From positions 76,354-116,353 of the forward strand of contig NZ_JBCLVH010000012.1 of NCBI RefSeq assembly GCF_039548255.1: DNA of 40,000 nt, read 5' to 3'. Below are positions 3 to 36,123 of this stretch, piece by piece. The position numbers and the translations under genes are program-made. Each line of letters begins with the position of its first letter. The stretch's first letter is position 1. The notes beneath the pieces are model-generated. The model did no database searches and was not told the origin of the DNA. It worked only from the letters and a program-made list of their open reading frames with translations. Source of the stretch: Lentibacillus songyuanensis (GTDB taxonomy: Bacteria; Bacillota; Bacilli; Bacillales; Amphibacillaceae).

Positions 3-149
3 GGAAAGCATATGGGATTGTCTAGGACTAATATTTATGGAATTAAAGAAAGTATCGTCCATCAAATTTTACACTTTGAACACTTTGAACATATTTTACA
101 CAATGAACACATTGAACAAAGATTGCCAAATCAAAAATGCACAGTGTAG
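3..149 (+). CDS. 3' end of a probable late-gene regulator (sigma-like/HTH protein), 5'-truncated by the window edge
   Basis: Frame 3 is open from the window edge to TAG at 147-149. Translation: GKHMGLSRTNIYGIKESIVHQILHFEHFEHILHNEHIEQRLPNQKCTV. MGLSRTNIYGIKESIV looks like an HTH/region-4 helix. The position just upstream of the packaging genes matches xpf/ArpU-type regulators. A terminator follows. Confidence 0.4.
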   Translation, partial: GKHMGLSRTNIYGIKESIVHQILHFEHFEHILHNEHIEQRLPNQKCTV

Positions 150-13555: not shown

Positions 13556-16500
13556 ATGGCTAAACTGACAGCGCGTTTTGACTTAGAGGATCGTATTTCT
13601 AAAAAGCTAAAAACAATCAGCGGTAACGCAAAAGCCTTAGAGCAAAGCAGGGATAAATTAAACAAGCCTATGGTGCTTAAGGTAAAAGATCAAGCGACAA
13701 AAAGCCTTACAAAAGTTCATAAGTTTGTTCTGAAAGACATTGCTAAAACACACACAATGTACGTTGCTCTTAAAGATAAAGCCACAAAACCTTTAAATAA
13801 GCTGAATTCATTCATGAAACGAAAAATGCCAAGAACACACGACATCATAGTCAAGGCGCAAGACAAGACAAAGTCAGTGCTTGAAAAAATAAGACGCTAT
13901 GCAGGAAGGCACCTCTCCAAACCCTACATGCTTATGGTTGCCGCAAGGGACAGAGCAATGCCTACTTTGCATAAAATAGCTAATTATGCAAAAAGGGCGC
14001 TGTCCAAAGGGTACAACTTTTCCGTCCGTGCTATCGACATAGCTACTAAAACGGTAAGTCGAATAGCTTCGTTTGCTCGAACGGCCATCCCGCGTTATCG
14101 CGACTTCACTATTAGGGCGTGGGATCGTGCTACCAAAATAGTGGGTACGGTAAGGCGGGCTTTGTTTAGTATTCCGACAATGATTACGGTCACTTTGGGC
14201 GTTATCGGTGCCGGCAAACTGAAAGATGCCACCTTGGGTGCGGCTATGGATTTCGAGGGGTATCAGATAGCCACGGAGCATTGGCTAGATGGTAACAAGA
14301 AGAAAGCGGACGAGCTTGTTGAATGGATGAGGGATTTTACAAACAAGACACCGTTTGATTCACCAGATTTATTCCCTGCTTTAGCACGTGGAATTGGCGT
14401 TGCTGACGGTGATGTAGGTCAAGCGAAACGGCTGCTAAATATAGCCACAGATATGGCTGCATTAACTCCTAATCGAACTGTAGAAGATGCAATGGATGCC
14501 TTGGCAGATGCTAATATGGGTGAATTCCAAACGTTAAAAGGTTTTAACGTTAAGATGACTCAAGATGACTTTGAATCATGGGAAGGATTCCAGTCAGATA
14601 TGGAGGACATGTTCTCGGGCGGTGCCGAACGTTTTTCGCAGACATCCAGAGGTTTGTTTAACAAAATTGGTGGATATATAACTGCGAGTTTCCGTGAAGC
14701 CGGAGAAGGTATGCTAGAATCCATGAAGCCACGTCTTGATAAAATCAGCACATGGATAGATAACAACCAAGATAAGTGGATGGAGTGGAGAGATACTGTT
14801 CAAAAAATGGGTGAACAGGGTGCAGAATGGGTTCTTTCCAAACTTGAAGGTGCATTTTTCTATATACGTGACAACTACCTTGAAAATGACGAGTTCAAAA
14901 AACTAGATTTCGAGGGAAAAGTTAAGTTCATCATGGAAGACCTCGGGAAATGGTGGAATGACAAAGGCAGACCGATAATGGCCAAGGTCAGCAAAGATGT
15001 TGGTGCTGCAATTTTCGAGGGAATTAAATGGGGTATCAAAGAAGGTTTTAAAGGTGTTGGATCCATGTGGATGGAAGCCTTTAAAGACCCAAGCGTAGAA
15101 GGTTTTGCAGGTGCTGGTATTGCTACAGCCATTGCAGGATCTATTCTTTCCTTGGTTTTGAGTCCATTATTCAAAGGTATAAGGGGAATATTTAAAACAG
15201 GGAAATGGTTCTGGGATCAAGGTAAAAAAGTAGCGGGGTTATTCGGAAAAAGAAAACCGCCAAAAGTACCGCCTGTTGTTCCGCCGGGAGGAGGTAAAAC
15301 TCCTAAGGGTTCGAATAAACCCAAAGGGAAACCCACATATACTCAACCTTGGTTCAATAAGGGGGACAAAGTAAAAACCCCTAAACCAAATGATTTTAAA
15401 AATGTATCGAAAATATCAAAAATATTTAAGCCTTTAAGTAAAATCGCAAAGAGAATACCCGTAATTGGCCCAGCGTTAGGCGCGTTATCATTGCTCGGCA
15501 CCGATAAAAAAGACATGGCTGGAGCTGTCGGAGGAATGGGCGGCGGCATACTAGGTGGTGCAGCTGGTGGGGCGGCTGCCGGTGCTGCATTTGGTGGCGT
15601 TGGCGCAATACCCGGAGCAATTATAGGTGGTATTGCTGGAGCGTTTGGCGGTGAAGCCCTTGGTGATTGGCTGTCAGATAATTGGAGTGCAATCAAAACC
15701 AAGGCAAGCGAAACGGGTCAATGGATTTCGGATACATTTGTAGGAATAAAAGACAGTATTGCAGAAACCATTTTCAGCGGTGAATGGTGGGGAGAAAAAT
15801 GGGACGGAGTTAAGAATTGGACGTCTGAAAAACTATCCGACACTGCGGAATGGTGGAACAACATAAAGCAAACCGCATCCGAAACATTCTTTAGCGCTGA
15901 CTGGTGGCTTGAACAAGCTGGTTTCATTTATGGTTACCTTGAAGAGACCATTTTTTCAGGTGAATGGTGGTCTGATAAATGGGAAATCGTCAAAGAATGG
16001 ACAGAGGGCACCATATTCGACGGAGAATGGTGGAGTGACAAGTGGGGTTCCGTGATGGAATGGACTTCCGAAAAATGGGACTCTGCGGTTGAAATATGGC
16101 AATCTGTCAAAACGGCCTTTGCAGAAACGGTATTTAGTGCTGACTGGTGGGCTGGGAAATGGGAGTCTGTGAAAGGATGGACTCAAGAAAAGTGGGATTC
16201 CGCAGTATCTGTTTGGAATTCTGTAGTAGATAAAATTTCCGAGACCATTTTCAGCGGCGATTGGTGGCTCGAAAAATGGGAAGGCGTTAAAGGTTGGACT
16301 GCTGATAAGTGGGATTCAGCCGTTTCTATATGGAATTCCGTCACAGACAAGATAAGTGAAACCATTTTCAGTGGCGAATGGTGGAAAGGCAAGTGGGAAT
16401 CTGTCAAAGACTGGACGAGCGATAAATGGGATACGGCTAAATCCATTTGGAGCGACGTGAAAACCTCTATTTCAGAAACATTGTTCAGCAAGGATTGGTG

Positions 16501-22755: not shown

Positions 22756-23046
22756 TTGCTAAAAATAATCAATGAAATAGTAGATTACATTGATGAACGG
22801 GCTGTCAAAGCAGACTACACCATCAACGGAAAAACGTATCCGGCCAAGATTAGGCGTTCTCTTGTTAAGGGAAATACGTTAAGAAAACATATATATTTAA
22901 CTCATAAAGACCCGACGGGAACCGTTACAAGAGCTAGGCTACTTGATGAAGATGGAGGGGTTGTCGCTGAACGAAATGACAGCCAAGAACATGAGGAAAA
23001 TAAGGGTTTGCTGTTAGAATTTAAAATCACTATTCAGGAGGTGTGA
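22756..23046 (+). CDS. Small hypothetical tail-fibre-region protein (96 aa, TTG start)
   Basis: Preceded by AAGGAGGTGG; abuts the previous stop. Confidence 0.5.
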   Translation: MLKIINEIVDYIDERAVKADYTINGKTYPAKIRRSLVKGNTLRKHIYLTHKDPTGTVTRARLLDEDGGVVAERNDSQEHEENKGLLLEFKITIQEV

Positions 23047-23048
23047 GT

Positions 23049-23561
23049 ATGTCAGTTAAAGATTACCGTGATCAATCATATGTACCTACAGAGTGGGAAG
23101 ACCAAGTCGTTGATAAAGATTCGGGAGATGTGTTAGTTGAAGGTACGCCAGTCGCAGAGACAACCTTAGGAAACTTAGAAACAGGCGTCATGCTATCCCA
23201 CTTCGATATTGGCATGCTACTGGCATTCGCGAATCAGTTGGGTACGTTAAACCAAAAAGAGTTAGACAAAATCAAAAATCAACGTATTCTACAAGGAAGC
23301 GGGACAATAACCAATACAATCAGTGATAACGGATATTTTAGGTCATCTGAGCCGTTTAAAACAATTTCCTTAGAAGGGTATTCACAAGTAAATGCGCCAA
23401 ATTATGATGTAATATTAACGCCTAAACCGACTGATGAATCGACTGGTTGTGTTGGAAAGTTGATTGCTTATGATAAAACAAGAAATGGCTTCAAGGTAAA
23501 AATGACGGGATCTGCAGATTCGGTCTCTTTTTTATGGACTTTAATCAACCCAAACGTATAA
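23049..23561 (+). CDS. Putative tail fibre / receptor-binding protein (XkdV position)
   Basis: ATG lies 8 nt after AGGAGG (the ORF track starts at GTG 23043). The N-terminus PTEWEDQVVD...GTPVAETTLGNLETG is the conserved N-terminal motif of Firmicutes phage fibre proteins. Confidence 0.55.
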   Translation: MSVKDYRDQSYVPTEWEDQVVDKDSGDVLVEGTPVAETTLGNLETGVMLSHFDIGMLLAFANQLGTLNQKELDKIKNQRILQGSGTITNTISDNGYFRSSEPFKTISLEGYSQVNAPNYDVILTPKPTDESTGCVGKLIAYDKTRNGFKVKMTGSADSVSFLWTLINPNV

Positions 23562-23576
23562 AAGGAGGAAAAATCA

Positions 23577-23969
23577 ATGATTATAACAAGCGCAAACAGT
23601 GGCCGCAAAGCAAATTATTCTTTGAGCGGTACTAAATTAACCATTGAAAATCAAATAACTATTGACTTGCAAGATAAAGAACGCACGGTTGAAAGGGTTA
23701 TAGATGTTTGTCTGGACAGACAGTTAGTAACCATTCGGGAGGGGTTGGGCGCATGGTATGTCGCTAATATCATCATCCCACCAAGACGCTATTCTTATCA
23801 ACCCAGCGGAGAAAAAGACGAAAATGACGAGAAAATCATGGAAGAGGTAGAACTTCCGGTGGATCCGTCATTGGTTGAATTAAGATTGTGGGGGCTTCCT
23901 ACGCAGTACTTTGAAAATGAAGATGAAGAAAGCGAAGACGAAACAAACGAATCGGAGGATGATGAATAA
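23577..23969 (+). CDS. Hypothetical protein with an acidic tail (XkdW position)
   Basis: 130 aa; AAGGAGG RBS; the stop overlaps the ATG of the DGR target gene. Confidence 0.5.
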   Translation: MIITSANSGRKANYSLSGTKLTIENQITIDLQDKERTVERVIDVCLDRQLVTIREGLGAWYVANIIIPPRRYSYQPSGEKDENDEKIMEEVELPVDPSLVELRLWGLPTQYFENEDEESEDETNESEDDE

Positions 23970-25027
23970 TGTCATTTATTTTATCGGTAAAAGACACATA
24001 TAGACAAGCTGTAGAAGCGGCAAGCGGTGGGAAAAACACTGTTATGTATGACGACAAAGGAAACCCATCAATTATGGTGTGCATCCCTCGTTTCAACTTG
24101 AGTGATGTGATTGACGGCGCGCCTAACACACCACACCCAGCATTTATTGTTGATGGTGTTGTTAAAAAGGAAATTTGGGTATCTAAGTTCCAGAATATTG
24201 TCCACGATGGCCGCGCATATTCGATTCCGGGTGTAGACCCTAAAGCATCTATTAATTTCAATGACTCAAAAGATGCATGTACCCGGAAGGGAGAAGGTTG
24301 GCACTTAATGACTAATGCTGAATGGGCTGCATTGGCTTTATGGTCTAAGAAAAATGGAACAATGCCACGCGGAAACAATGATTATGGAAAAGACCACTCT
24401 GCATCATATGAACGAGGAGTTGAAACCTATGAAACAGGGGGCAGAACAGGTCGTGTGGCAACTGGATCAGGGCCAGCAACTTGGAGTCATGATCATACGC
24501 CGTTCGGAGTGTTTGATTTAAACGGTAACGTCCGTGAGTGGGTAGACGGTTTACGCCTTATTGACGGTAAGATATACGTACATCAAGATAATGACTTTAA
24601 TACGCCGGATTCGTTGTCTAATTGGGTGGATACCGAGATATATGTAGATAACTCGGAAAAAGGCAATGACAGAAAAGAGTCCAATACTGTTAGCGGAAAA
24701 CCTATTTTGAACAGCAAAAGAGAGAATCCGATGTACACAGGTGGAGACGTTGATGATTATTACGGTTACAACTACACCGGCTTTGAAGACCTCGAAACAA
24801 AGAGCGGGGTTAGTACACCAGATTTACTAAAATATTTGGCTATTGCGCCTACCGAAGGAGACCATGGCGGTGACAGATTCTATGCACGTAACTATGGTGA
24901 GCGTTTCGCGCTCCGTGGAGGCCATTGGAGCCACGGTGCTAATGCTGGTGTGTTCTACCTGTACTTGCACAACCGTGCTTCGCGTTCGCTTACGCTTCTT
25001 GGCTTTCGCTCGTCGCTGGTTTTATGA
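23969..25027 (+). CDS. DGR variable (target) protein, C-type lectin / FGE-sulfatase-like fold; probable distal receptor-binding protein
   Basis: GWHLMTNAEWAALALW and FDLNGNVREWVDG motifs. C-terminus GGHWSHGANAGVFYLYLHNRASRSLTLLGFRSSLVL. The last 125 bp are repeated, with adenine-specific differences, at 25471-25595. Confidence 0.9.
   Translation: MSFILSVKDTYRQAVEAASGGKNTVMYDDKGNPSIMVCIPRFNLSDVIDGAPNTPHPAFIVDGVVKKEIWVSKFQNIVHDGRAYSIPGVDPKASINFNDSKDACTRKGEGWHLMTNAEWAALALWSKKNGTMPRGNNDYGKDHSASYERGVETYETGGRTGRVATGSGPATWSHDHTPFGVFDLNGNVREWVDGLRLIDGKIYVHQDNDFNTPDSLSNWVDTEIYVDNSEKGNDRKESNTVSGKPILNSKRENPMYTGGDVDDYYGYNYTGFEDLETKSGVSTPDLLKYLAIAPTEGDHGGDRFYARNYGERFALRGGHWSHGANAGVFYLYLHNRASRSLTLLGFRSSLVL
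24897..25021 (+). repeat. DGR variable repeat (VR)
   Basis: Aligns without gaps to 25471-25595 (offset 574). There are 14 mismatches, 13 of them opposite TR adenines. The final 25 nt (24997-25021) contain no A and are identical, which makes them IMH-like. Confidence 0.92.
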
Positions 25028-25057
25028 GTTCTGTAATCTGATAACTGATAATCTGTT

Positions 25058-25079
25058 AGGCTCTGCGATAGCGGAGCCT
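25058..25079 (+). promoter_or_regulatory. Hairpin with GATA (GNRA-type) tetraloop downstream of VR; candidate DGR target-recognition hairpin/cruciform and/or terminator
   Basis: aggctctgc GATA gcggagcct forms a 9-bp stem including one T-G pair, followed by ttttac. Confidence 0.6.
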
Positions 25080-25102
25080 TTTACTTTAAGGGGATAGAAA
25101 CA

Positions 25103-25444
25103 TTGAATAGGGAAGACTTGAAAATACTGCAGAGAGCAAACGATATGATCGAATATGGTTACAAGGCGTTGAGGCAGTACCCAAAATCAGAGCGACACAC
25201 TCTTGCGGCAGACACCAAGCAGTGTATGTACAATATTTTAAAATTGATCATACGTGCGAATAAGCGTTATTTCAAAAAGACGACCTTACAGGATTTGGAT
25301 ATAGAAATAGACACATTAAGACATTTTATAAGGTTAGGCCAATCATTGGGTTTTCTTCCGTTTCGTAAATATGAAATATGGTCAAAGCAAATCAACGAAA
25401 TTGGAAAAATGCTAGGTGGTTGGATAAAATCTAACCCGAAATAA
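25103..25444 (+). CDS. avd: Accessory variability determinant (Avd; four-helix-bundle protein)
   Basis: 113 aa, TTG start. YPKSERHTLAADTKQ...LDIEIDTLRHFIRLGQSLGFL...EIGKMLGGWIK matches the Avd / 23S-IVS-protein family pattern. Lies between the target gene and TR. Confidence 0.85.
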   Translation: MNREDLKILQRANDMIEYGYKALRQYPKSERHTLAADTKQCMYNILKLIIRANKRYFKKTTLQDLDIEIDTLRHFIRLGQSLGFLPFRKYEIWSKQINEIGKMLGGWIKSNPK

Positions 25445-25470
25445 GTGTCCTTAGGGAATTGGTCATTTTT

Positions 25471-25595
25471 GTGAGCGTTTCGCGAACCGTGGAGGCAATT
25501 GGAACAATGGTGCTAATGCTGGTGTGTTCTACCTGAACTTGAACAACCGTGCTTCGAATTCGAATACGAATCTTGGCTTTCGCTCGTCGCTGGTT
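25471..25595 (+). repeat. DGR template repeat (TR), non-coding
   Basis: Copy of the VR that keeps AAC/AAT at every diversified codon. Not part of any plausible + strand ORF. Confidence 0.92.
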
Positions 25596-25753
25596 CTCTC
25601 TGTCAGAAGTTACAAGCGTACTCGCTTGTATCCAGAATTGAAGAAAACGGACTGATTTCCTTGCCAATGGCGGCTAAAGATATAAATTGCCGGCAAATCA
25701 GTTAGTATATTGAATTGGAAAAGTGATACGGCCGGCCAACATAGAGAAAAAAG

Positions 25754-26842
25754 GTGAATAAAAATATGAAAAGGGTAGGTCAGTTATTTGAAAAAATAAT
25801 TGATTACGAAAATCTCTTTGAAGCATATTTAATGGCCAAAAAAGGGAAACGTTATAGAGGAGAGGTTTTAGATTTCAGCTATAATGCTGAGGAAGAATTA
25901 ATACAAATACAAAATGATTTAATATACGGAACTTATGAAGTTGGTCGATACCGTGAATTTTATGTGTACCATCCGAAAAAGAGATTAATTATGGCGTTAC
26001 CGTTTCGTGATAGAGTAGTTCAATGGGCGATTTATAAAGTGCTTTATCCAATTTATTTCAAAAGGTTTATAAAAGATTCTTATGCCTGTATAAACGGAAG
26101 AGGTTCACATAGTGCTGCAGCAAGAATCCAGTATTGGTTGCGGCAATTAGAAAGACAACCGGGTAAAACCTATTATCTGCAGATGGATATGTCGAAGTAT
26201 TTTTATAGAATCAACCACGACATTTTATTGTCGATAATTTCTAGAACAATAAAAGATAAAGACCTCATGGTTTTGTTGGCCAGAATTATAAAAAGTGAAC
26301 ATACAAAGTTTGGAATACCGCTAGGTGACCATTTCTATGAACAAGAAAGAGTTGATGGTGTTGGCATGCCAATCGGTAATCTAACAAGTCAACTGTTCGC
26401 CAATGTCTATCTTAATGAAATGGATCAGTATGCTAAACATGATATGAAGGTACGTCATTATATACGTTATATGGATGACATAGTTATTCTTCATAAGGAT
26501 AAGAATGAATTGAAAGAAATATTGATAGAATCAAATTTGTTTCTGCAACATGAATTACATCTTCAAATTAACAACAAGACAAGAATCGACAACACTAACC
26601 ACGGAGTGGATTTTGTCGGAAAAAGAATATGGCCAACCCACATGAAATTAAGAAAAGAAACTGTGAAAAACATGAAATCAAGGCTAAAGTACATACAAAA
26701 ACAATTTGCCTTTGGGGAGGTGAGTACAGATGAAGTGAGGTCTGTTTTATCGTCTTATCTTGGATTAATGAAGCACACAGATTCGCATAATCTGAGAAAG
26801 AAGATATTGAAAGAATTTGTATTAACAAGAGGCGCCGAATAG
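25754..26842 (+). CDS. DGR reverse transcriptase
   Basis: RT motifs YLQMDMSKYF, GMPIGNLTSQLFANVYL (the DGR-typical I/LGxxxSQ) and IRYMDDIVIL (YMDD). The start may be ATG at 25766 rather than GTG at 25754. Confidence 0.92.
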   Translation: MNKNMKRVGQLFEKIIDYENLFEAYLMAKKGKRYRGEVLDFSYNAEEELIQIQNDLIYGTYEVGRYREFYVYHPKKRLIMALPFRDRVVQWAIYKVLYPIYFKRFIKDSYACINGRGSHSAAARIQYWLRQLERQPGKTYYLQMDMSKYFYRINHDILLSIISRTIKDKDLMVLLARIIKSEHTKFGIPLGDHFYEQERVDGVGMPIGNLTSQLFANVYLNEMDQYAKHDMKVRHYIRYMDDIVILHKDKNELKEILIESNLFLQHELHLQINNKTRIDNTNHGVDFVGKRIWPTHMKLRKETVKNMKSRLKYIQKQFAFGEVSTDEVRSVLSSYLGLMKHTDSHNLRKKILKEFVLTRGAE

Positions 26843-26854
26843 GGCGTATTTTTT
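26832..26854 (+). terminator. Weak intrinsic terminator overlapping the RT stop codon
   Basis: gcgcc gaatag ggcgt hairpin followed by atttttt. Confidence 0.35.
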
Positions 26855-26901
26855 ATGGATGAATACGAGGATGTCTAAAGTCAACACGAGAGGGAGATTT
26901 T

Positions 26902-27312
26902 ATGTTTAGACATTACAATGAAGCAAAGTTTTTAGCGAACATGTATATATTAACCATATCGCTATTTAATTTTATGACGGGCATATTTTTTATTACTGCG
27001 GATCCGCGAATATCGTCGCCAACATATACAAAAATGCAAGATTTGATGCCCCTGTCAGTCTACGGCCTGATAATGCTGACATCATCCATTTTGCTGTTTT
27101 CTTGTATTTTCCAGCAAGGGAAAATAAGATGTATTTTTATGATGATTGGCGGGTTTTTAGGTGCTATTAGCATTGGTTTATACGCCAGTGCAAGCTCTAT
27201 AGGAGCGGTCAATATAATGTTGCCTTCAAGATATAGTTTGATTAGTATATCATGTTTGCTCATATCGATCGCTGGAGGTTTTAGTTTATGGCGAATGAGG
27301 ATGAGTATGTAA
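26902..27312 (+). CDS. Integral membrane protein (about 4 TM segments), function unknown
   Basis: 136 aa. Hydrophobic stretches FLANMYILTISLFNFMTGIFFI, LSVYGLIMLTSSILLFSCIF, CIFMMIGGFLGAISIGLYA and LISISCLLISIAGGFSLW. RBS GAGGGAG. Confidence 0.65.
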   Translation: MFRHYNEAKFLANMYILTISLFNFMTGIFFITADPRISSPTYTKMQDLMPLSVYGLIMLTSSILLFSCIFQQGKIRCIFMMIGGFLGAISIGLYASASSIGAVNIMLPSRYSLISISCLLISIAGGFSLWRMRMSM

Positions 27313-27686
27313 CAAGACTGGAATTAATAAAAACACAAAACGATTTAAAAAACGATGTGACAGAGCGGATAGACAACGTACGCAAGAAAGTTGATACCTT
27401 GAACGATATAGTTCTACCGTTGGTGGAATCATCAAAACAAACAGCAAAAAACACAGATAGAATGGCCACTGTACTTGACGAGTTTACGAACGACCAAAGG
27501 AAGCGAAACGGCGACTTTTATGACCGGCTTCACGAGCATGATAGGGCTATAGATAATCTGGGTTTAAAAACGAAATATAGAACAGAGGACAAAAAGCAAA
27601 TGGCGAAAATTATAGTAGCCGGTATTGGCCTGGTTGCCGCTATAGTGAGTGGTATATTCGGGCTTGCGCCGTTGTTTTTTAACTAG
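27288..27686 (+). CDS. XhlA-like lysis-associated protein (coiled coil plus C-terminal TM anchor)
   Basis: 132 aa; C-terminal IIVAGIGLVAAIVSGIFGLAPLFF; lies directly upstream of the holin, as in PBSX xhlA. Confidence 0.55.
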   Translation: MANEDEYVTRLELIKTQNDLKNDVTERIDNVRKKVDTLNDIVLPLVESSKQTAKNTDRMATVLDEFTNDQRKRNGDFYDRLHEHDRAIDNLGLKTKYRTEDKKQMAKIIVAGIGLVAAIVSGIFGLAPLFFN

Positions 27687-27696
27687 GAGGGGTAAA

Positions 27697-28038
27697 GTGG
27701 AATCACTAACAAGTAGTTTAATAGAAGCAGTTTTTACAGTCGTCGGAATACTTTTAGCCGCGGCTGTTTCTTATTTTACGCCAAAAATAAAGCGGTGGCT
27801 TGATAAGGCTGTAGATAAAGACAACCTCGGGATCATTGAGTCTGTGGTAGATATGGCCGTGGAACTAATGGAAAATGAATTCAGCGGGCAGAGTGGCCAA
27901 GAAAAGTTCAATCAAGCATCTGAGTATGTTGCTTTAATGGCGCACCGTTATGGAATTGAAGTGTCGGATGAATTTATACGTGGAGCTGTACAAAAAGGCT
28001 GGCGTCGAATGGATGAAAAACAAAAGAGCAAAGAGTAA
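27697..28038 (+). CDS. Holin (LL-H-like: one N-terminal TM, charged C-terminal domain)
   Basis: GTG start after AGGAGGGG. N-terminal LIEAVFTVVGILLAAAVSYF followed by a hydrophilic domain. Confidence 0.6.
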   Translation: MESLTSSLIEAVFTVVGILLAAAVSYFTPKIKRWLDKAVDKDNLGIIESVVDMAVELMENEFSGQSGQEKFNQASEYVALMAHRYGIEVSDEFIRGAVQKGWRRMDEKQKSKE

Positions 28039-28308: not shown

Positions 28309-29526
28309 ATGGCTACTAAAAACGGTATTGAATATGTCGTAAAAAGATTGCCAAACAACAAACTGACTCTTAAAGCTACCAACCCAATGAAAGCAAAAGG
28401 ATATACTTTGCATAACACTTATAATGATGCGGCTGCATTGAGTGAAATAAGCTATATGCAGACAAATAACAATCAAGTGTCTTATCATTTTGCGGTGGAT
28501 AACTTAAGAATCGTGCGAGGTTTACCGCTAGATCGCAACGGTTGGCATGCTGGTGATGGAGGTAATGGTTACGGAAACAGAAACACTTTTGGAGTAGAAA
28601 TATGTTATTCGAAAAGTGGCGGAGAGCGTTATGACAAGGCTGAAACAAATGCAATCATGTTTGTGGCCAATGGATTAGTTGAAAATGGATGGGATATGTC
28701 AGACGTTCACAAACATCAGGATTGGAGTGGGAAGAACTGTCCTCATAGAATCTTGGCTCGTTCTCGCGGATGGCAAGGTATTTTAAAAGCGATAGAGAAA
28801 GAGTATAATAGATTAAAAGGTGGCAAGCCAAACAAGCCTAGCACTCCTTCCAAACCGTCAACTCCATCTAATGGCGGCGCTTATAAAGGAAATAGTATTG
28901 TAGACTATTTAAACGGCAAAGGTATTAATTCGAGTCCTGCCAATCGTAAGAAGTTGGCCAAGAAGTATGGCGTTAAGAATTACACTACTTCCGCAAAGAA
29001 GAATCTTGAATTATTGAACGCAATGAGAGACGAAAAAAAACCATCTAGCGGAGGCGGCAGCAAGCCGACAGGTAAATCAATCAGTAAAATGGCTGATGAG
29101 GTTATTGCTGGAAAGCATGGTTCAGGACACGAAAACAGACGCAAGTCTCTCGGAATAAGCAAATCCGAATACGAAAAAGTCCGTGCGGAGGTCAATAGAC
29201 GTTCCGGAGTGAAGTCCAAACCTAAACCTAGCGGAAAGTCTGTTTCTCAAATGGCTAAAGAAGTAATTGACGGAAAGCATGGTAATGGACATGCAGCAAG
29301 ACGTAAGTCGTTAGGAATTAGCCAGGCTCAATATAATAAGGTTAAAAATGAAGTCAACAAGCGATTGACTGGCAAATCGTCAGGCGGAGGAAAATCTATT
29401 GCGACTATGGCCAAGGAAGTTATTGCTGGAAAACACGGAAATGGTCACGCGGCCAGACAAAAGTCTCTTGGCATAAGTAAAGCGCAATATGAAAAAGTAA
29501 GAAAAGAAGTAAATAAGAAACTGTAA
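28309..29526 (+). CDS. Endolysin: N-acetylmuramoyl-L-alanine amidase (Amidase_2/PGRP) with three C-terminal CW_7-type cell-wall-binding repeats
   Basis: GWHAGDGGNGYGNRNTFGVEICYS...HKHQDWSGKNCPHRIL, followed by 3x MAxEVIxGKHGNGHxxRRKSLGISxxxYxKVxxEVNxx. Confidence 0.9.
   Translation: MATKNGIEYVVKRLPNNKLTLKATNPMKAKGYTLHNTYNDAAALSEISYMQTNNNQVSYHFAVDNLRIVRGLPLDRNGWHAGDGGNGYGNRNTFGVEICYSKSGGERYDKAETNAIMFVANGLVENGWDMSDVHKHQDWSGKNCPHRILARSRGWQGILKAIEKEYNRLKGGKPNKPSTPSKPSTPSNGGAYKGNSIVDYLNGKGINSSPANRKKLAKKYGVKNYTTSAKKNLELLNAMRDEKKPSSGGGSKPTGKSISKMADEVIAGKHGSGHENRRKSLGISKSEYEKVRAEVNRRSGVKSKPKPSGKSVSQMAKEVIDGKHGNGHAARRKSLGISQAQYNKVKNEVNKRLTGKSSGGGKSIATMAKEVIAGKHGNGHAARQKSLGISKAQYEKVRKEVNKKL
29071..29523 (+). 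repeat. Three in-frame tandem repeats (162/156-bp period) encoding CW_7-like modules
   Basis: Units start at 29071, 29233 and 29389, all in frame with the 28309 start. Confidence 0.85.
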
Positions 29527-29759: not shown

Positions 29760-30800
29760 TTATAAAGCATTTAACAGATTTAAAGCATCGGCATCTTGCT
29801 GGTGCTTTTTTTCTGGCATTAATTCTAGATAATAATTTTGTGTGGTTTGGATATTTATATGTCCTAATCGTTTTGATACATAAGCAATATCTATGTCTTG
29901 AGCAAATAAAAATGATGCGTGCGTATCTCTCAAACCATGAAACGTTGTTTTTTTAATGTCTAGTTTCTCTAGTAGTTCAGTCAACTGTTCAGATTGTTTA
30001 AATCCCCCAAAACTAAAAATATAACCATTTTCTTTAACAGGAATCCTACGAATAAGCTCATACACTTCTTTGTTTATAGAAACATCACGTTTTGCATTTT
30101 GTGTCTTCAATGAAGTATCGTCAGAGGTAGGACTGATGGAATGTCTAACTTCTATTCCGTATTCATAAAGACTCTCTGGTCGTATTGCTAGTAGTTCTCC
30201 ACGTCGCATACCTGTTTCTAATGCTAGTAATACAAGTACGTTGAATTCATCTTCTGTATGCTGTAAAACGTAATTGCGAAGCTTTTTAAAATCTGTAATA
30301 GATAAAGCTTTGTTTCGTTTAGGTGGGTTTTCACCACGTGTTTTCACTAAACGAGCAAAATCGTTTGTAATATAACCACGAGCGTATGCATCACGTAAAG
30401 ATGTTTTAATTTTAAGAAGCACTTCATGTGTTGTTTTTCGTGAATGTGTTTTCGCATATTCGTCAATTTTCTTCTGAACAACAATATCATTTAAATCTTT
30501 CAATTGGTTATCCTGAAATAAATTTCTAATAATGCCAGAAGTACGAACATAATTTTGAAATGTTGTTTCTTTAACATCATTAACCTTTACAAGGTAAATC
30601 CAATTCTCGAAGAAATCTGCAAATGTTGTTGTTCTGTGAGCGAGTTCTTTTCCTTCCCCTTTCGCTAATTCCATTTCTAAAGCCCAAAGATTTGCTTCTT
30701 TCTTTGTTGGAAAGGTTTGCGAAATCCTTTTATGTTGACCGTGTTTGTATAAAGAAACCTGTGCTCGATATGACTTTCCTCTTTTTACTATACTAGCCAT
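29760..30800 (-). CDS. int: Tyrosine site-specific integrase
   Basis: 346 aa; C-terminal catalytic pattern FHGLRDTHASF...LGHINIQTTQNYYLE (HxxR ... H ... Y); N-terminal SAM-like arm domain. Confidence 0.9.
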   Translation of the reverse strand: MASIVKRGKSYRAQVSLYKHGQHKRISQTFPTKKEANLWALEMELAKGEGKELAHRTTTFADFFENWIYLVKVNDVKETTFQNYVRTSGIIRNLFQDNQLKDLNDIVVQKKIDEYAKTHSRKTTHEVLLKIKTSLRDAYARGYITNDFARLVKTRGENPPKRNKALSITDFKKLRNYVLQHTEDEFNVLVLLALETGMRRGELLAIRPESLYEYGIEVRHSISPTSDDTSLKTQNAKRDVSINKEVYELIRRIPVKENGYIFSFGGFKQSEQLTELLEKLDIKKTTFHGLRDTHASFLFAQDIDIAYVSKRLGHINIQTTQNYYLELMPEKKHQQDADALNLLNAL

Positions 30801-30827
30801 ACTATCATCCCTCTCATAAAAATAGCT

Positions 30828-30880
30828 GATAGATGCTAGTTGAATACAATTATATTGTATTTCTAAACTAGCATCTTATC
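30828..30880 (-). promoter_or_regulatory. Long imperfect hairpin between xis and int
   Basis: gatagatgctagtt...aactagcatc(t)tatc forms an outer stem of 14 bp with one bulge. Inner stem aatacaat/attgtatt (8 bp, loop tat). On the - strand it is followed by cagctattttta. Confidence 0.45.
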
Positions 30881-30894
30881 AACTGTCGGCATTT

Positions 30895-31092
30895 TTAAAC
30901 GGAGTGCTTTTCGATAAAGTGTACTAAAGATTTCATTGTGTATCGTTCATGCTTGCCGATCATGAAACGCTCTAGCTCATCGTGTGGTCGGATATATTTA
31001 TCAAAGGATTTTGGATCAATACCTAAGAAGTCTGAGGCTTGTTCTCTTGTTAATAGATATGGATAATCCTTTGTAGCCATGTTGGTGCTCAT
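30895..31092 (-). CDS. xis: Excisionase-family HTH DNA-binding protein
   Basis: 65 aa; LLTREQASDFLGIDPKSFDKYI matches the excisionase/MerR-like HTH_17 pattern; lies directly upstream of int. Confidence 0.75.
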   Translation of the reverse strand: MSTNMATKDYPYLLTREQASDFLGIDPKSFDKYIRPHDELERFMIGKHERYTMKSLVHFIEKHSV

Positions 31093-31109
31093 ATGGCATC
31101 TTCTCCTTT

Positions 31110-31307
31110 TTATTCATATTCGTTTAATGCATTCAATGCACTTTCGGCACTAACTTTAATATTTGCTAAAATAGATTCGGGTGTATAGTTGTGTTTTTGA
31201 TAATCCGAATCACTGGTCTTTTTGTTGATTGTGCTTTCACCCTGTAAAACTGAGTCAACAATTTCAATCACATTCTTTATGTTTTCTCTTACTTTTGGCT
31301 TATTCAT
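31110..31307 (-). CDS. Small hypothetical protein (65 aa)
   Basis: ORF with aaaggagaag-like RBS context; no motif. Confidence 0.45.
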   Translation of the reverse strand: MNKPKVRENIKNVIEIVDSVLQGESTINKKTSDSDYQKHNYTPESILANIKVSAESALNALNEYE

Positions 31308-31314
31308 GTAAATA

Positions 31315-32472
31315 TCATCCTTCCCAAGGTTTACCTTCTAACAGATAAAGTGCCTTGTATTTATTCACCCAAGATATATGGTCATCATTGGGTTCGAACT
31401 CTTCATAGAAATGTTTATAGAAATAATCTATTAATTCCCGTGCTGTGCCATCGCCCCATATTTGTTCAACTTTCCACAATGTCGGAAGAAGACCAGAACC
31501 CTTAATTAAATGATCAATCGACTGCTCCAATAAGTTGTTTCGTGGTGATGGTGACTCAAAGTGAAAATCTTTCTGTTCCAACAAATCGAGCATTAATTTC
31601 GTAAGTTTATGTGGACGATTCGAGTTCGTGTAAAAGAACATGTATCGATCAATGATAGAACTCACAATTAAATCTTTGAGTTGTTCATCCGTATTACAAT
31701 GCTTTATCGCTTCCGTTAGCTGGTGCGCATAATCACCGGAATACTCTGCTTCAACACGTGTCCAGTCATCTACTTCTTTAGCTACATGGCGCATGTGTTT
31801 CATGATAGTTGTTCCTCTTTTTTATCATAAATGCGTAAATGCACTTTTGTATTTCTGCTTTTTGCCCCGATATACAATGTTTGAGCTTGAAAGTTTTTGG
31901 ACACATCGGACACTTTCGAGTTGTTTCTTTTGTATGGTTTTTCTTTATTGTCATTAATAACCTTTTGCAGATAACTTTTATTAGTACTTGCCATAGCGCA
32001 ATTCAGTCCTTTTCTCTTCAATTGAACGTTTTAATTTAGCGATATCAATGCCTTCATTAAAAAAGTCACAGCACATATCAATTCGTGAAAGTCTAAAAGA
32101 ATACTCATCAGCATCAATCAACTTAAAAAAGGTGTGTAAATGGATTGGTTCGTTAAATTCTTCTTCATATCGCTTCCGATATTCATGCCATGCGTAAGCG
32201 CTGAATTTGACTATGACACCCATTTTTGTGAATGCTTCATGATAAGCAATACAGAAGTAAAATGGTGCATTGATGAATGAATAGCCCACGGTATAACCTT
32301 CAGGTAGCTTAACGTCTGCTTCATCAAAGTCGTCGAATAGCTTATGCATTTTTGATTTAATCAAGAATGTGCCTATTAAGCTTTTTGCTATCCAGTCACG
32401 CCATTCGTCAAAGTCAAATACGCCTGTTGCCTGTAATACAAGTGTAAATTGGTCAATATCTGGTTTAATCAT
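31315..32472 (-). pseudogene. Rep_trans-family replication initiator/relaxase (Tn916 Orf20-like) interrupted by two frameshifts
   Basis: Family motifs are split over three ORFs: RIDMCCDF (31981-32472), TLYIGAKSRNTKVHLRIYDKKEEQ (31800-32021) and DDWTRVEAEYSGDYA (31315-31803). The outer fragments share one frame and the middle one is shifted. Confidence 0.65.
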
Positions 32473-32495
32473 GTTCTATTCACTCCTTTTCGTTC

Positions 32496-32688
32496 GAAAA
32501 ACTTTAGCGAAAGTTTTTCAAGTGTAAAAGCCCGTTATGACGGTATTGATTGTTGTTTTTGCTTCCTATCGGAGCTGGCGTGATTACCAAGACGCCAGCT
32601 CTCCTAAAGGAGAGAAGCACGGAGCGGAACCTTCCCCGCCTGAACGGCGGGTCCCCTTCCACTCTCTGTGCCGTCGTTCCTTAAGGAA
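32496..32688 (-). promoter_or_regulatory. Inverted-repeat-rich, locally GC-rich intergenic region; candidate oriT
   Basis: IRs: gaaaaacttt/aaagtttttc (32496-32519); gagctggcgt/acgccagctc (32572-32601); ctctcc/ggagag (32599-32614); cccgcc/ggcggg (32635-32651); palindrome ttccttaaggaa (32677-32688). Confidence 0.45.
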
Positions 32689-32691
32689 GAG

Positions 32692-34011
32692 CTAGGCGCT
32701 TTCATTCAAAAAGCTACAGTAAGGAACCATCAACAACCGTGGCTTGTCTGCGCTGGCTAACCCTGGATAGCTGTATACCCCTTGACCAGCAGTAAACTGA
32801 ACTAAAGGTATATCCACACCTGAAGAAAACAGAGTTCTATAGGTTTGCTCATCGCTATCACCTAAAGCAATCTTTAAGACGAGCTGTTCTCTAATCGCTG
32901 TTGGCATCGTCTGAGCATTCATTTGTTGTGTCGCTATCCATAGAATACACCCTAGTTGACGTCCCATGAAGGCAACGTCAGAGAGTATACTATCGACTTC
33001 ATCACGTTCCTTTTTCGACAAAGTCTTCCATGATTCTCTCAATGCTCCGAACTCATCTATAAGTAGAATTAAAGCTGGTAAACCAGCGTCCTTATACGTT
33101 TTGTTGCGATTCGATATGAAATAATCTTGCAACTCATCTTGTCGTTCATTCATACGCTCATGAAATTGTTTAATTAGTTCAATCGCATTTGTTTTGTCGG
33201 CAGTTCGATCATCACCAATGGTACGTTTAGCCATTTGGTATACATCTGTACGCTTTGGATCAATAATGAATAACTCATGATTGACACTTTTTGATAATAC
33301 TTGTTCAACTAGCATTTGAACAAGTAGTGATTTACCTCCACCTGTCTGGCCGCTAAGACCCATATGATGAAACGGAACAGTTGCACGTTCATCTAAACGT
33401 AAGGCGTAATCGTCTGCTGTCATGTTTGACCATTCAATCAAATCATTTGCTGATTTAATCTCAAGTTGCTTTTGTGAATCTACAGCATAAAATTCATAGA
33501 TGTAGTAATTACGGTTCTTAGACAAATACTGACGTTCACTTAAATATCCATTTAATGCTGAATCAATTCTCATGTCTTCTAATTTTTTGTCGAATTTAAT
33601 TGAGTTTTGGATTAGCACTTTTCCTGATTTTCTAGCTCGATTATCATCAAATTCAATTTTGATTTTCGGTAATCTAACTAAACGATTATCAAACTCACGT
33701 TCATCTTCGAATCTAGCATCTTTAATATGCCTTCTTATGCGTTTTACCATCGAATAATAATGCGCAGAAAAAAGTGGTCCAAACCATAGTTTATTGCGAA
33801 ATGACCAACTAACGAATAAGCCAATTTTCATCAGACCAACAGGAACCAAGAAGATATTTGACTCAACATGTGGAAGCTGTAATATCGTTATTTGTTCTGC
33901 AATCAATGGATACAGTTTATAAAAGAAAAACCATAAAACGAGAAGCAATCCAATGATTAGAAACGAAATAAACCCACGCTGCATTCGGTATGTTTTCTTC
34001 ACGTAATTCAC
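32692..34011 (-). CDS. FtsK/SpoIIIE-family DNA translocase / coupling-type ATPase (Tn916 Orf21-like)
   Basis: 439 aa; N-terminal TM segments; Walker A GLSGQTGGGKS; Walker B ALILLIDEFG. Confidence 0.85.
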   Translation of the reverse strand: MNYVKKTYRMQRGFISFLIIGLLLVLWFFFYKLYPLIAEQITILQLPHVESNIFLVPVGLMKIGLFVSWSFRNKLWFGPLFSAHYYSMVKRIRRHIKDARFEDEREFDNRLVRLPKIKIEFDDNRARKSGKVLIQNSIKFDKKLEDMRIDSALNGYLSERQYLSKNRNYYIYEFYAVDSQKQLEIKSANDLIEWSNMTADDYALRLDERATVPFHHMGLSGQTGGGKSLLVQMLVEQVLSKSVNHELFIIDPKRTDVYQMAKRTIGDDRTADKTNAIELIKQFHERMNERQDELQDYFISNRNKTYKDAGLPALILLIDEFGALRESWKTLSKKERDEVDSILSDVAFMGRQLGCILWIATQQMNAQTMPTAIREQLVLKIALGDSDEQTYRTLFSSGVDIPLVQFTAGQGVYSYPGLASADKPRLLMVPYCSFLNESA

Positions 34012-34028
34012 ATCCTAATATTGTGATT

Positions 34029-34048
34029 CCGCCCCTTTTCAGGGGCGG
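34029..34048 (-). other. GC-rich 8-bp hairpin with GAAA loop (on the - strand) between the small ORF and the ftsK-like gene
   Basis: ccgcccct tttc aggggcgg on the + strand. Confidence 0.5.
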
Positions 34049-34101
34049 TCACATGCATTGAAATGATAATGATAGAAAGGGAACTAATTGTCCCCTGTTC
34101 T

Positions 34102-34461
34102 TTATTTTGGTTGAGTAATTTCCACATCATCTGCTTTAACAGAAAGTTCACTCATGAACGTTCCATACACAGAAGCTGTCGGATTTACAAACGTGATTTT
34201 ACTGAACTTTTTATACTCTTTTGGAGGCTGAGAGACCTTAACCACAATCTTTTCTCCTGCATTAAGGTCAGGTGCTACTTCTTCCCCTGTGTATTTTGTT
34301 CGATCGGTTGCAATTACCGTTTTGTACTTAGTACCTACGACTTTAGGGTTCTTTCCGTCCGCATCGTATTCTTTCCAGTCCTCGTGTGACATCACTCGTA
34401 CATCCTTGTCCTTGAAGAACCCTACTGCGTCAAAGACGTTAAATTGGCGTAATTTTTTCAT
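34102..34461 (-). CDS. Small conserved conjugative-element protein (possibly DUF961-like, as Tn916 orf22/23)
   Basis: 119 aa; first gene of the - strand module, upstream of the FtsK-like gene. The family assignment is from position and memory only. Confidence 0.4.
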   Translation of the reverse strand: MKKLRQFNVFDAVGFFKDKDVRVMSHEDWKEYDADGKNPKVVGTKYKTVIATDRTKYTGEEVAPDLNAGEKIVVKVSQPPKEYKKFSKITFVNPTASVYGTFMSELSVKADDVEITQPK

Positions 34462-34494
34462 GTGAAGAATTCATCCTTTCCCTATGGATATTTT

Positions 34495-34600
34495 GATTGA
34501 GGCCTCAATCTATTTACATCCTACCACGTTGCCTTTGTCGAATCTATGGCAGATAAAGCGCGCGCATCTATGGATATTTCTTTTGTAATGGTGTTATAAT
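34495..34600 (+). promoter_or_regulatory. Divergent promoter/operator region
   Basis: Perfect 16-bp palindrome gattgaggcctcaatc (34495-34510). Direct repeats ctatggatattt (34482 and 34568) plus ctatggcagata (34544). Extended -10 tgttataat (34592-34600). Confidence 0.45.
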
Positions 34601-34629
34601 TAAATAAAACATGAAGGGGTTCGTTGCAC

Positions 34630-35355
34630 ATGCATAAGTATTATGGCAAGGAAGAAATATTAACGTTAATAGACAAACGATTTGGTTATGAATTTGAGGG
34701 GAAAGAAAAGGATGATCATCTGATTAGCTCGAAAGCATGGAATAAATATTATAGAGATTTTTTTGAAGCGAAAGAGGATAAATTATATGAGACATTAAAA
34801 CATGATGAATGGGACAAAATAGATAATCTGATTGATGACGAAAAAAATAGAAGAACTAAAAGTAATAATAGATATAAAAAATACAGAGAAGACCTTGTAG
34901 AAGAAATTATTGCATTTCATGAAAAGCAACTAATAGATCAACGGAATGGTAATCGAAAAACGACTATAGACCATCACGCCATAAAAATGTTTGAACGTTT
35001 TGCAGAGGCGTTAGGAACAAAAGTTGATGAAAGTATTTATGAAAAAAGAATACCAAAAACAAAATACAACAAAATGATGAACGAAAGAGTTCCTTCACCT
35101 ACGAAAGAAGAAATAATGGAAAGGAAAGAGCAATTAGTAAATATTATATTTGAACAATTAATAGATGAGGATAAGTTCAATGATGATATACAAGAGCATT
35201 TCATTAGTAATAATTTAATTCATGGTTTGACAACCCCTCTCAAAGCCATTGAAGACGAGGGTGAGTGGTTAGGGTTTCAAATTGATGCTAAAAATTATTT
35301 GAAAGAAAATGTAAAGCAAGAAATCATTAATGATATTAAAGAGTCATCTAAATAA
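34630..35355 (+). CDS. Hypothetical Lys/Glu-rich protein (about 241 aa), unknown function
   Basis: ATG 10 nt after GAAGGGG (the ORF track starts at TTG 34624); AT-rich codon usage; no recognisable motif. Confidence 0.6.
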   Translation: MHKYYGKEEILTLIDKRFGYEFEGKEKDDHLISSKAWNKYYRDFFEAKEDKLYETLKHDEWDKIDNLIDDEKNRRTKSNNRYKKYREDLVEEIIAFHEKQLIDQRNGNRKTTIDHHAIKMFERFAEALGTKVDESIYEKRIPKTKYNKMMNERVPSPTKEEIMERKEQLVNIIFEQLIDEDKFNDDIQEHFISNNLIHGLTTPLKAIEDEGEWLGFQIDAKNYLKENVKQEIINDIKESSK

Positions 35356-35400
35356 AATAGATGTAAATCACAGACGAGCTATGTATTTTCCCTTTTCAGC

Positions 35401-35543
35401 TCTCCTAATTGTAATCTCCTAATGCGTCCGTAGAGAATGGACGCATTATCGATTAGGTAAAGGGTCTTCGTTCTTCGGATGTTATGAGTCAGCCAAGTAG
35501 GATAAGGGTGCGTAAGAAAGCAATTAACGCTTTTAACGCACCC
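35401..35543 (+). ncRNA. Candidate structured leader/ncRNA (or single-strand promoter-like element) upstream of the radC-like gene
   Basis: 9-bp stem aatgcgtcc/ggacgcatt (35421-35447). Two-tier stem gggtgcgt...acgcaccc (35506-35543) with inner aaagc/gcttt. Direct repeats tctcctaat x2 and ttaacgc x2. Lies in a 324-bp gap between + strand genes. Confidence 0.35.
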
Positions 35544-35679
35544 TAATTCATTGGGCTTCCTCAAAACATATACGAATCACTTGATAGCTTTTCTACTTAC
35601 GCCACTTGACATTAATCGATGCGAAGATTCTTTGTGTGGTGACCAAAAAGGTCAAAAAATCATAGAGAGGTTGATCTAG

Positions 35680-36123
35680 ATGGAAACCATTTTAGAAGTT
35701 GTTCGCATCGAGCAAATTATTCGTGAGGCAGATGAGGGTGTTGATTATGTTGTCCGTAGCCCAGAAGATGGAGCAAAGATTGCATCTCGCTTTATTGGGC
35801 GTGATGATCGTGAAGTATTCTTTGTTATGTGCTTAAACACTAAAAATAATGTGATTGCAGTTCATCGTTGTCATGTTGGTTCATTAAATTCCTCCATTGT
35901 ACATCCGCGTGAAGTGTTTAAATCAGCAATACTTAATAACGCGGCAAGTGTCATAGTTGCGCATCAGCATCCAAGTGGTGACATAAAACCTTCAATGGAA
36001 GATATTAACGTTACAAAAAGATTAGTCGATGCTGGGAAGTTACTTGGGATTGAAGTGCTTGATCACTTAGTGGTGAATAATGACAACAGTTTTACCAGTT
36101 TAAAAGAAAGAGGACATATTTAA
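35680..36123 (+). CDS. radC: RadC-like JAB/MPN-domain protein (short mobile-element form)
   Basis: 147 aa; JAMM motif VAHQHPSGDIKPSMEDINVTKRL. Confidence 0.88.
   Translation: METILEVVRIEQIIREADEGVDYVVRSPEDGAKIASRFIGRDDREVFFVMCLNTKNNVIAVHRCHVGSLNSSIVHPREVFKSAILNNAASVIVAHQHPSGDIKPSMEDINVTKRLVDAGKLLGIEVLDHLVVNNDNSFTSLKERGHI

Follow-up and report, generated by a model that had tools for sequence, protein, structure and literature searches.

The diversity-generating retroelement (DGR) of Bordetella phage BPP-1 is laid out as mtd-avd-TR-brt, where TR is the template repeat. A hairpin after the variable repeat (VR) is required for homing in this phage, and the corresponding hairpins of phage DGRs have a GC-rich 7-10 bp stem and a 4-nt 5'-GRNA loop, and lie 4-34 bp after the VR (Guo et al., 2011; PMC3240598). 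The spacer (Sp) layout of the BPP-1 ribonucleoprotein, our source of comparison, comes from a cryo-EM study in which ten residues of the BPP-1 reverse transcriptase (bRT) are catalytic or touch the template or incoming nucleotide (Handa et al., bioRxiv 10.1101/2023.10.23.563531). Among RNA motifs associated with reverse transcriptases (RTs), RT-10 is located in BPP-1 between TR and brt; RT-14 was reported with no function, and its authors speculated that further RT motifs may serve other DGRs (Weinberg et al., 2017; PMC5737381). For the target side, the closest described structure is TaqVP (PDB ID: 5VF4), the variable protein encoded by a DGR in a Thermus aquaticus prophage, which has a C-type-lectin (CLec) fold and a VR covering residues 341-374. 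Adenine mutagenesis at its positions D348 and N351 could yield catalytic residues of the formylglycine-generating enzyme (FGE; PMC6328139).

Here we analyse a DGR in a 40,000-nt stretch of the Lentibacillus songyuanensis genome (contig NZ_JBCLVH010000012.1, positions 76,354 to 116,353 of the forward strand), referred to throughout as the window. We are highly confident that the element is a complete, canonical phage DGR carried by a PBSX/Xkd-like, contractile-tailed Lentibacillus prophage, whose receptor-binding tip protein it diversifies. It is a further member of a very common and known phage DGR clade, and no new type. Hundreds of near-identical cassettes occur in Bacillota phages and hundreds of relatives in viral contigs, and because such cassettes are so abundant the single locus adds little to the field. 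Only two points go beyond routine annotation, namely an array of CTG motifs after the VR and the placing of RT-14 among DGR RNAs, with a BPP-1-like architecture.

Repeat pair and proteins of the element

The VR and the TR were compared computationally over 125 nt, aligning without gaps at an offset of 574. The comparison gave 14 mismatches, of which 13 lie on TR adenines (13/26 of the adenines in the TR), and the probability that at least 13 of 14 mismatches fall on adenine is 8.5e-10 (hypergeometric/Fisher). All 13 adenine changes are at codon positions 1 or 2, and they alter 9 of the 11 AAY codons of the TR (Y, pyrimidine): AAC->CTC, AAT->CAT, AAC->AGC, AAT->CAC, AAC->TAC, AAC->CAC, AAT->CGT, and AAT->CTT twice. 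The adenines outside AAY codons (in GAG, GGA, TAC and ACG) are unaltered in 4/4 cases. An earlier description of the locus, made from the sequence alone (hereafter the preliminary description), had given the same mismatch counts and the same codon list, confined to AAC and AAT; the computed alignment agrees with both exactly, and the mismatches are indeed concentrated on TR adenines. The lone mismatch elsewhere is a T->C change (VR 24934 / TR 25508) in the third base of AAT->CAC, which is synonymous (His). In the target protein the 11 variable AAY positions are residues 315, 319, 321, 322, 325, 332, 334, 335, 339, 341 and 343, and these codons alone permit about 15^11 (9e12) protein variants without stop codons.

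The last 25 nt of the VR had been described as A-free, identical to the TR and resembling the initiation of mutagenic homing (IMH) site. The base composition and the identity hold; the segment is only part of the IMH, with the proposed VR-specific half, which would confer directionality, lying just downstream at 25022-25079. A 24-nt A-free core occurs in two copies in the window, where 0 are expected, and has no exact match in the genome contig collection. No further copy of the TR or VR is present on either strand of the 40 kb, the best other match covering 44/99 of the non-adenine positions. The TR sits in the avd-RT intergenic region, and the sole open reading frame (ORF) across it is an unsupported 78-aa frame on the minus strand. 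In Bacillus phage BalMu-1, a 'hypothetical protein' (gp52) is annotated over the TR. Separately, the 1572-aa tape-measure gene of the window contains an imperfect direct repeat (16190-16371; 65 nt, offset 117, 16 mismatches), which was excluded as a second TR/VR pair because its mismatches carry no adenine bias.

The same footprint extends across the clade. A near-identity DNA search of the phage collection gave no match, so relatives were reached through protein searches, and 87 loci were examined in all, comprising the window, four close relatives and IMG/VR contigs. The layout VR-avd-TR-RT is present in 75/87 loci, with a VR/TR offset of 520-670 bp, and the loci without a VR/TR pair are mostly incomplete contigs. 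Across the loci, 773/822 VR/TR mismatches are at TR adenines, and the TR is conserved among relatives while the VR differs. Three pairs of IMG/VR contigs from different metagenomes (L044/L045, L050/L052 and L055/L056) share an identical TR and identical 300-bp upstream flanks, and their VRs differ at 19, 18 and 12 sites; TR adenines account for 18, 18 and 12 of these, respectively. As contigs with an identical TR differ almost only at adenine sites, the clade diversifies in nature.

The target protein matches TaqVP over residues 2-347 (E 4e-78) and phrog_2889 (1.5e-129). The preliminary description gave it a C-type-lectin/FGE-like C-terminus and proposed a comparison with FGE-sulfatase models. 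The Pfam FGE-sulfatase model is matched above its cut-off (31 bits, cut-off 23.3), with the match spanning residues 84-193 and not the C-terminus; the assignment of the C-terminus is supported instead by the TaqVP alignment over the C-terminal VR. Here, the TaqVP VR aligns to target residues ~312-341, and by our own reading of the segments RGGDWGNG and RGGHWSHG, target residues 319 and 322, both encoded by AAY codons in the TR, line up with D348 and N351. The start of the gene overlaps the stop of the upstream 130-aa ORF. The variable protein is the last tail gene, which is consistent with a receptor-binding tip. The element identifies the receptor-binding protein of the prophage, and the phage or PBSX-like particle is predicted to be capable of rapid host-range change.

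The target is 100% identical to an NCBI entry named 'SUMF1/EgtB/PvdO family nonheme iron enzyme' (Lentibacillus sp. N15), and has ~4,000 homologues among NCBI proteins, many from Bacillaceae and mostly under the same SUMF1/EgtB/PvdO name. An exact-sequence look-up of the target protein and of the RT (with both possible starts) matched no contig. The NCBI name is misleading, as it implies an enzyme and not a phage receptor-binding protein, and it is also carried by the DGR variable proteins NC_030945 gp50 and NC_027981 gp18.

The 113-aa product encoded between target and TR, noted earlier as Avd-like, passes the curated models for accessory variability determinant (Avd): the NCBIfam DivGenRetAVD equivalog (129.1 bits, cut-off 80), Pfam bAvd (2e-33; 115.5 bits, cut-off 40) and phrog_3206, 'Avd protein of DGR' (1e-43). 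Avd is found in the BPP-1-type majority of DGRs, and is not universal.

The RT has bRT (PDB ID: 8UB7) as its best PDB match (E 1.2e-55), the next being a group II-like RT (1.6e-23), and it matches phrog_1423 at 2e-141. It carries the motif PIGNLTSQ (DGR-clade motif [I/L/V]GxxxSQ) as well as YMDD. The counterparts of bRT K29, F66, R74, I76, D138, I181, G182, Q187, D215 and D216, the ten residues from the cryo-EM study, are all present and are invariant across four relatives (alignment A3). The RT scores below the cut-offs of the group II RT/maturase model TIGR04416 (130.7 bits, cut-off 300) and the retron_St85_RT model (41.8 bits, cut-off 235). The preliminary description was correct on the identity of the RT and on its YMDD motif, and had begun the coding sequence at GTG 25754. 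Most likely the start is ATG 25766, because a ribosome-binding site (RBS; AAGGTG) occupies 25751-25756, the gene call in the relative L004 gives a 358-aa protein, and the alignment to bRT starts at this codon. Taken as a whole, the claim of a complete DGR is borne out: each defining part was tested and found, and all four parts lie where they had been placed, in agreement with the ORF listing. The features are collected in Table 1.

Table 1. Positions of the DGR features in the window
Feature	Position	Strand	Remarks
Target (variable protein) gene	23969-25027	+	352 aa; TaqVP-type C-type-lectin/FGE fold; last gene of the tail/baseplate module
Variable repeat (VR)	24897-25021	+	Codons 310-351 of the 352-aa target
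A-free VR 3' end	24997-25021	+	25 nt, relatively G+C-rich; identical to TR 25571-25595; shared part of the IMH
Four-CTG array	25028-25057	+	GTTCTG TAATCTG ATAACTG ATAATCTG; CTG at 25031, 25038, 25045 and 25053; spacing 7, 7, 8
DNA hairpin/cruciform	25058-25079	+	9-bp stem AGGCTCTGC/GCGGAGCCT (one G-T pair), loop GATA, then TTTTACTTT
avd	25103-25444	+	113 aa; TTG start, RBS AAGGGGA upstream
5' strand of TR-bracketing RNA duplex	25453-25464	+	AGGGAAUUGGUC; 12 bp; counterpart of the BPP-1 avd:Sp 'cPRT Stop' duplex
Template repeat (TR)	25471-25595	+	Non-coding; 26 adenines, 22 within 11 AAY codons (VR frame)
Spacer RNA	25596-25735	+	140 nt; Rfam RF02921 (RT-14); TR-RT interval
Stem-loop, Avd-binding analogue	25602-25638	+	8-bp hairpin 25611-25618/25623-25630, loop UACU
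A-rich segment	25640-25649	+	GAAGAAAACG; candidate primer strand and priming adenosine
3' strand of TR-bracketing RNA duplex	25650-25661	+	
Short hairpin, then A-rich single strand	~25663-25674	+	
Long interrupted stem, RT-binding-stem analogue	25689-25735	+	
DGR reverse transcriptase gene	25766-26842	+	358 aa; alternative GTG start 25754; YMDD 26468-26479

Spacer RNA and the candidate signals after the variable repeat

The interval separating the TR from the RT gene matches the RT-14 model over its full length (model positions 1-144/144) with 60.2 bits against a gathering score of 48.1. The match opens at the first base past the TR/VR homology in the window, and at approximately the end of the TR in L004 and L001. 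RT-14 occurs in the same position in 15 further loci (L001, L004, L087 and 12 IMG/VR loci), including BalMu-1, and the RT gene follows it closely in 16/16 of the loci where it was found. Rfam holds RT-14 without a function, and the BPP-1 motif is now named Phage_DGR (RF03022). The family comparison links this orphan Rfam family to the DGR spacer RNA.

The structure of the spacer was examined in relatives. Run without prompting on a 42-locus alignment (A4), RNAalifold gave a predicted 12-bp duplex in which sequence just upstream of the TR pairs with spacer nt 55-66, bracketing the TR. In this duplex 95.4% of the alignment cells are paired, with changes on both sides in 9/12 pairs, and it is contained in both the minimum free energy and the centroid folds of the window's own sequence. 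A segment that is unpaired in the RT-14 model therefore pairs, with covariation, to sequence that lies upstream of the TR and outside the model. Taken together, the bracketing duplex, the stem-loop and the short hairpin show 93.6% standard pairs, compared with 71.5% in shuffles and 38-53% when the partners are slid, and the covariation score of the same three helices is 0.671 against 0.235 in shuffles, with 0/500 shuffles reaching the observed value. An outer helix that would pair template and primer also covaries in relatives, and the A-rich segment beside the duplex is the candidate priming site. The avd-TR-Sp RNA as a whole folds no better than shuffles (z = -0.86), so that its structure is supported by comparison and not by thermodynamics.

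An 18-nt inverted repeat (25341-25358 / 25640-25657) was considered as the bracketing duplex and dropped, as the pairing in Table 1 is the one that covaries across the 42 loci. A whole-segment RNAduplex search of the upstream flank against the spacer yielded long pairings that did not exceed shuffles (mean z = -0.5) and were taken as spurious.

Downstream of the VR, the hairpin begins 36 nt past the end of VR/TR identity, has a G+C-rich stem, and folds as DNA with -10.2 kcal/mol (z = -4.5). Its 9-bp stem and GATA loop fit the published rule for phage DGR hairpins, and its distance is just outside the published 4-34 bp. The loop is GATA in 43/68 related loci. The hairpin covaries, as 46 non-redundant relatives have 38 different stem sequences.

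Between the VR and this hairpin lies the CTG array, which is unique on both strands of the 40 kb (0.01 expected). The 46 non-redundant relatives typically have 4 CTG at this place, spaced by 7 nt (71 times) or 8 nt (41 times) in the preferred context TAATCTG, or (T/A)AATCTG-like, and the array stops 0-4 nt before the stem. In cultured phages, there are 4 CTG in Clostridium phage Saumur, 3 in Faecalibacterium phage Lagaffe and 3 in BalMu-1; the array is partial in Vibrio VP58.5 and vestigial in BPP-1. It is not mentioned by Guo et al. (PMC3240598), and a literature text search gave no description of it. In the relatives examined, array and hairpin always follow a VR immediately and are never found behind a TR, which makes the array a candidate VR-specific part of the IMH. 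We tentatively propose, as one possibility that we hold at somewhat less than even, that the array and the G-R-T-A-loop hairpin form the VR-specific half of the IMH. This would be a conserved docking signal in two parts that directs the RT-Avd-RNA-cDNA particle to its place of integration, common to Bacillota phage DGRs, weaker in Vibrio VHML-type phages, and possibly read by pentameric Avd. As a possible targeting signal, the array is open to experiment. Pairing of the array with conserved CAG-containing loops of the spacer RNA was also considered; the window has an 8-nt complement (TAACTGAT / AUCAGUUA), and the idea was set aside, as no covariation was seen on inspection of L015, L019 and L039.

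Activity and alternative explanations

The preliminary description held that the element has probably been active in this lineage. This is sound as an inference, because the VR bears the adenine footprint and sister elements of the clade differ almost only at adenine sites; activity in the past, and as a trait of the clade, is well supported. That this copy still works is likely, judging from its intactness in a single assembly. The contrary reading is a fossil DGR, in which the footprint is historical and the copy now silent, for example in a defective PBSX-like prophage or as an untranscribed cassette. Several observations weigh on that side. The exact sequence is found in one genome only, and the target protein of the next relative is 77% identical. 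The one non-adenine mismatch may reflect drift after the last homing or a mistake of the RT. The helix proposed to pair template and primer is weak here (-3.4 kcal/mol, compared with -6 to -14 in many relatives), and no promoter was assigned, the scan performing at chance level. Against silencing, the three ORFs are intact with their catalytic residues conserved, the cis elements are all intact and fit the covarying family consensus, and outside the adenines the VR and TR differ at 1/99 positions, which leaves little time for decay. We consider a fossil unlikely, and favour an element that is complete and probably functional. An origin of the repeats as an ordinary duplication or gene-conversion tract, diverged at random beside an unrelated retron or group II intron RT, could appeal to the sub-threshold matches of the RT to group II and retron models. 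These fall far short of their cut-offs, Avd is present, and the Rfam scan of 23000-28000 found RT-14 alone, with no group II intron or retron RNA. The mismatch distribution is incompatible with random divergence. With the model scores, the bRT affinity, the RNA scan and the adenine footprint all opposed to it, this explanation is refuted, and we give it next to no credence.

For the signals after the VR, the competing explanation is that the hairpin is a mere intrinsic terminator of the tail operon and the CTG array an unrelated conserved element, such as one that serves regulation or protein binding in late transcription, with no part for either of them in DGR targeting. A T-rich run does follow the hairpin in this window, and the role of the array in targeting is a candidate only. 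Many relatives (e.g. L001, L014 and L050), however, keep the hairpin with its G-R-N-A loop and have no T run, and the loop sequence is conserved, which a terminator does not need. The confinement of both elements to the VR side, and the requirement for the BPP-1 hairpin in homing, also point to targeting. We judge an exclusively transcriptional role to be quite improbable, and the hairpin may double as terminator of the target gene while serving the DGR.

Prophage context and comparison with described systems

The window holds a PBSX/Xkd-like myovirus prophage. Its genes run in the order terminase, portal, Mu-F, XkdF protease and capsid; sheath, tube, XkdN chaperone and tape measure; LysM, YqbQ, DUF2577, sheath initiator, baseplate J and Mu gp48-like; three small conserved ORFs; the DGR; and finally a membrane protein, an XhlA-like protein, holin and amidase. 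The three small ORFs (22756-23046, 23043-23561 and 23577-23969; phrog_7177, phrog_9010 and phrog_8734) always precede the variable protein in the clade, and the third has an acidic tail and overlaps the target start codon. They may be adaptors or chaperones that mount the variable protein on the baseplate.

Upstream of the terminase, 219-1550 encodes a fusion protein, with a ParB-N-terminal domain joined to an N6/N4 DNA methyltransferase. The endolysin (28309-29526) has an Amidase_2 domain and three C-terminal CW_7 cell-wall-binding repeats. Past the lysis cassette lie a tyrosine integrase (29760-30800, minus strand), an FtsK/HerA-like ATPase (32692-34011, minus strand) and a RadC-like gene (35680-36123). 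The region 29760-36123 represents one of two things, an integration module that belongs to the prophage and sits at an unusual end, or another mobile element next to it. Neither a tRNA gene nor an att site was found with which to fix the prophage ends, and the window contains no tRNA gene.

Among cultured phages, the nearest is BalMu-1 (NC_030945), with an RT identity of 63%, followed by Saumur (52%) and Lagaffe (48%), the target of the latter being annotated as Mtd-like. All three share with the window the run of baseplate J / XkdT, Mu gp48-like, three small ORFs, variable protein, Avd, TR, RT and lysis genes, as well as the CTG array and hairpin after the VR, and BalMu-1 also carries the RT-14 RNA. 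They differ in that their sequences have diverged and in their hosts, as Lentibacillus is not a host among the cultured DGR phages of the phage collection searched. TaqVP is homologous to the target over its full length, with the VR in the equivalent C-terminal segment and the variable positions in register, despite belonging to another phylum and host. The two proteins also differ in that their matches are split by a stretch without significant similarity (window residues ~211-242, TaqVP ~225-276).

The BPP-1 DGR and the window share the gene order of target/VR, avd, TR, spacer and RT, the adenine-specific divergence of VR and TR, the active-site residues of the RT, and a GRNA-loop hairpin after the VR. 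The elements of the spacer RNA also come in the same order and at nearly the same positions, a match that is positional and structural and not based on sequence. Counting in spacer nucleotides, the Avd-binding stem-loop of BPP-1 (3-33) corresponds to the tetraloop stem-loop of the window (7-43), the primer strand ending in the priming A56 (47-56) to the A-rich segment (45-54), and the 'cPRT Stop' duplex (59-70) to the duplex strand (55-66). The short stem-loop followed by A80/A81 (71-81) corresponds to the short hairpin and A-rich run (68 to ~90), and the long RT-binding stem (95-139) to the long interrupted stem (94-140); the single-stranded 'thumb ring' (82-94) was assigned no separate counterpart.

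By analogy with BPP-1, which underlies the whole of the proposed mechanism, the transcript would run from the avd 3' flank through the TR into the spacer, with the 12-bp duplex bracketing the TR, and the spacer stem-loops would bind the Avd pentamer and the RT. The A-rich spacer segment, paired to the TR 3' end, would prime cDNA synthesis in cis, and the RT would copy the TR, misincorporating opposite adenines, until halted by the bracketing duplex. The cDNA would then replace the VR, directed by the shared A-free 25 nt and by the downstream VR-specific signals, namely the CTG array and the GATA-loop hairpin.

The two systems also differ in several respects. The window target, of the TaqVP type, has a single domain and 352 aa, whereas the Mtd of BPP-1 is trimeric with three domains, and the phage is a Gram-positive myovirus, whereas BPP-1 is a podovirus. 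The spacer belongs to RT-14 here and to RF03022 (Phage_DGR) in BPP-1. The hairpin lies 36 nt past the end of VR/TR identity in the window, with the gap filled by the four-fold CTG array, compared with 4 nt in BPP-1. The bracketing duplex has its 5' strand in the gap from avd to TR here and inside avd in BPP-1. Across these differences, a distant clade keeps the RNA architecture of BPP-1 together with its TR-bracketing duplex, and with strong covariation.

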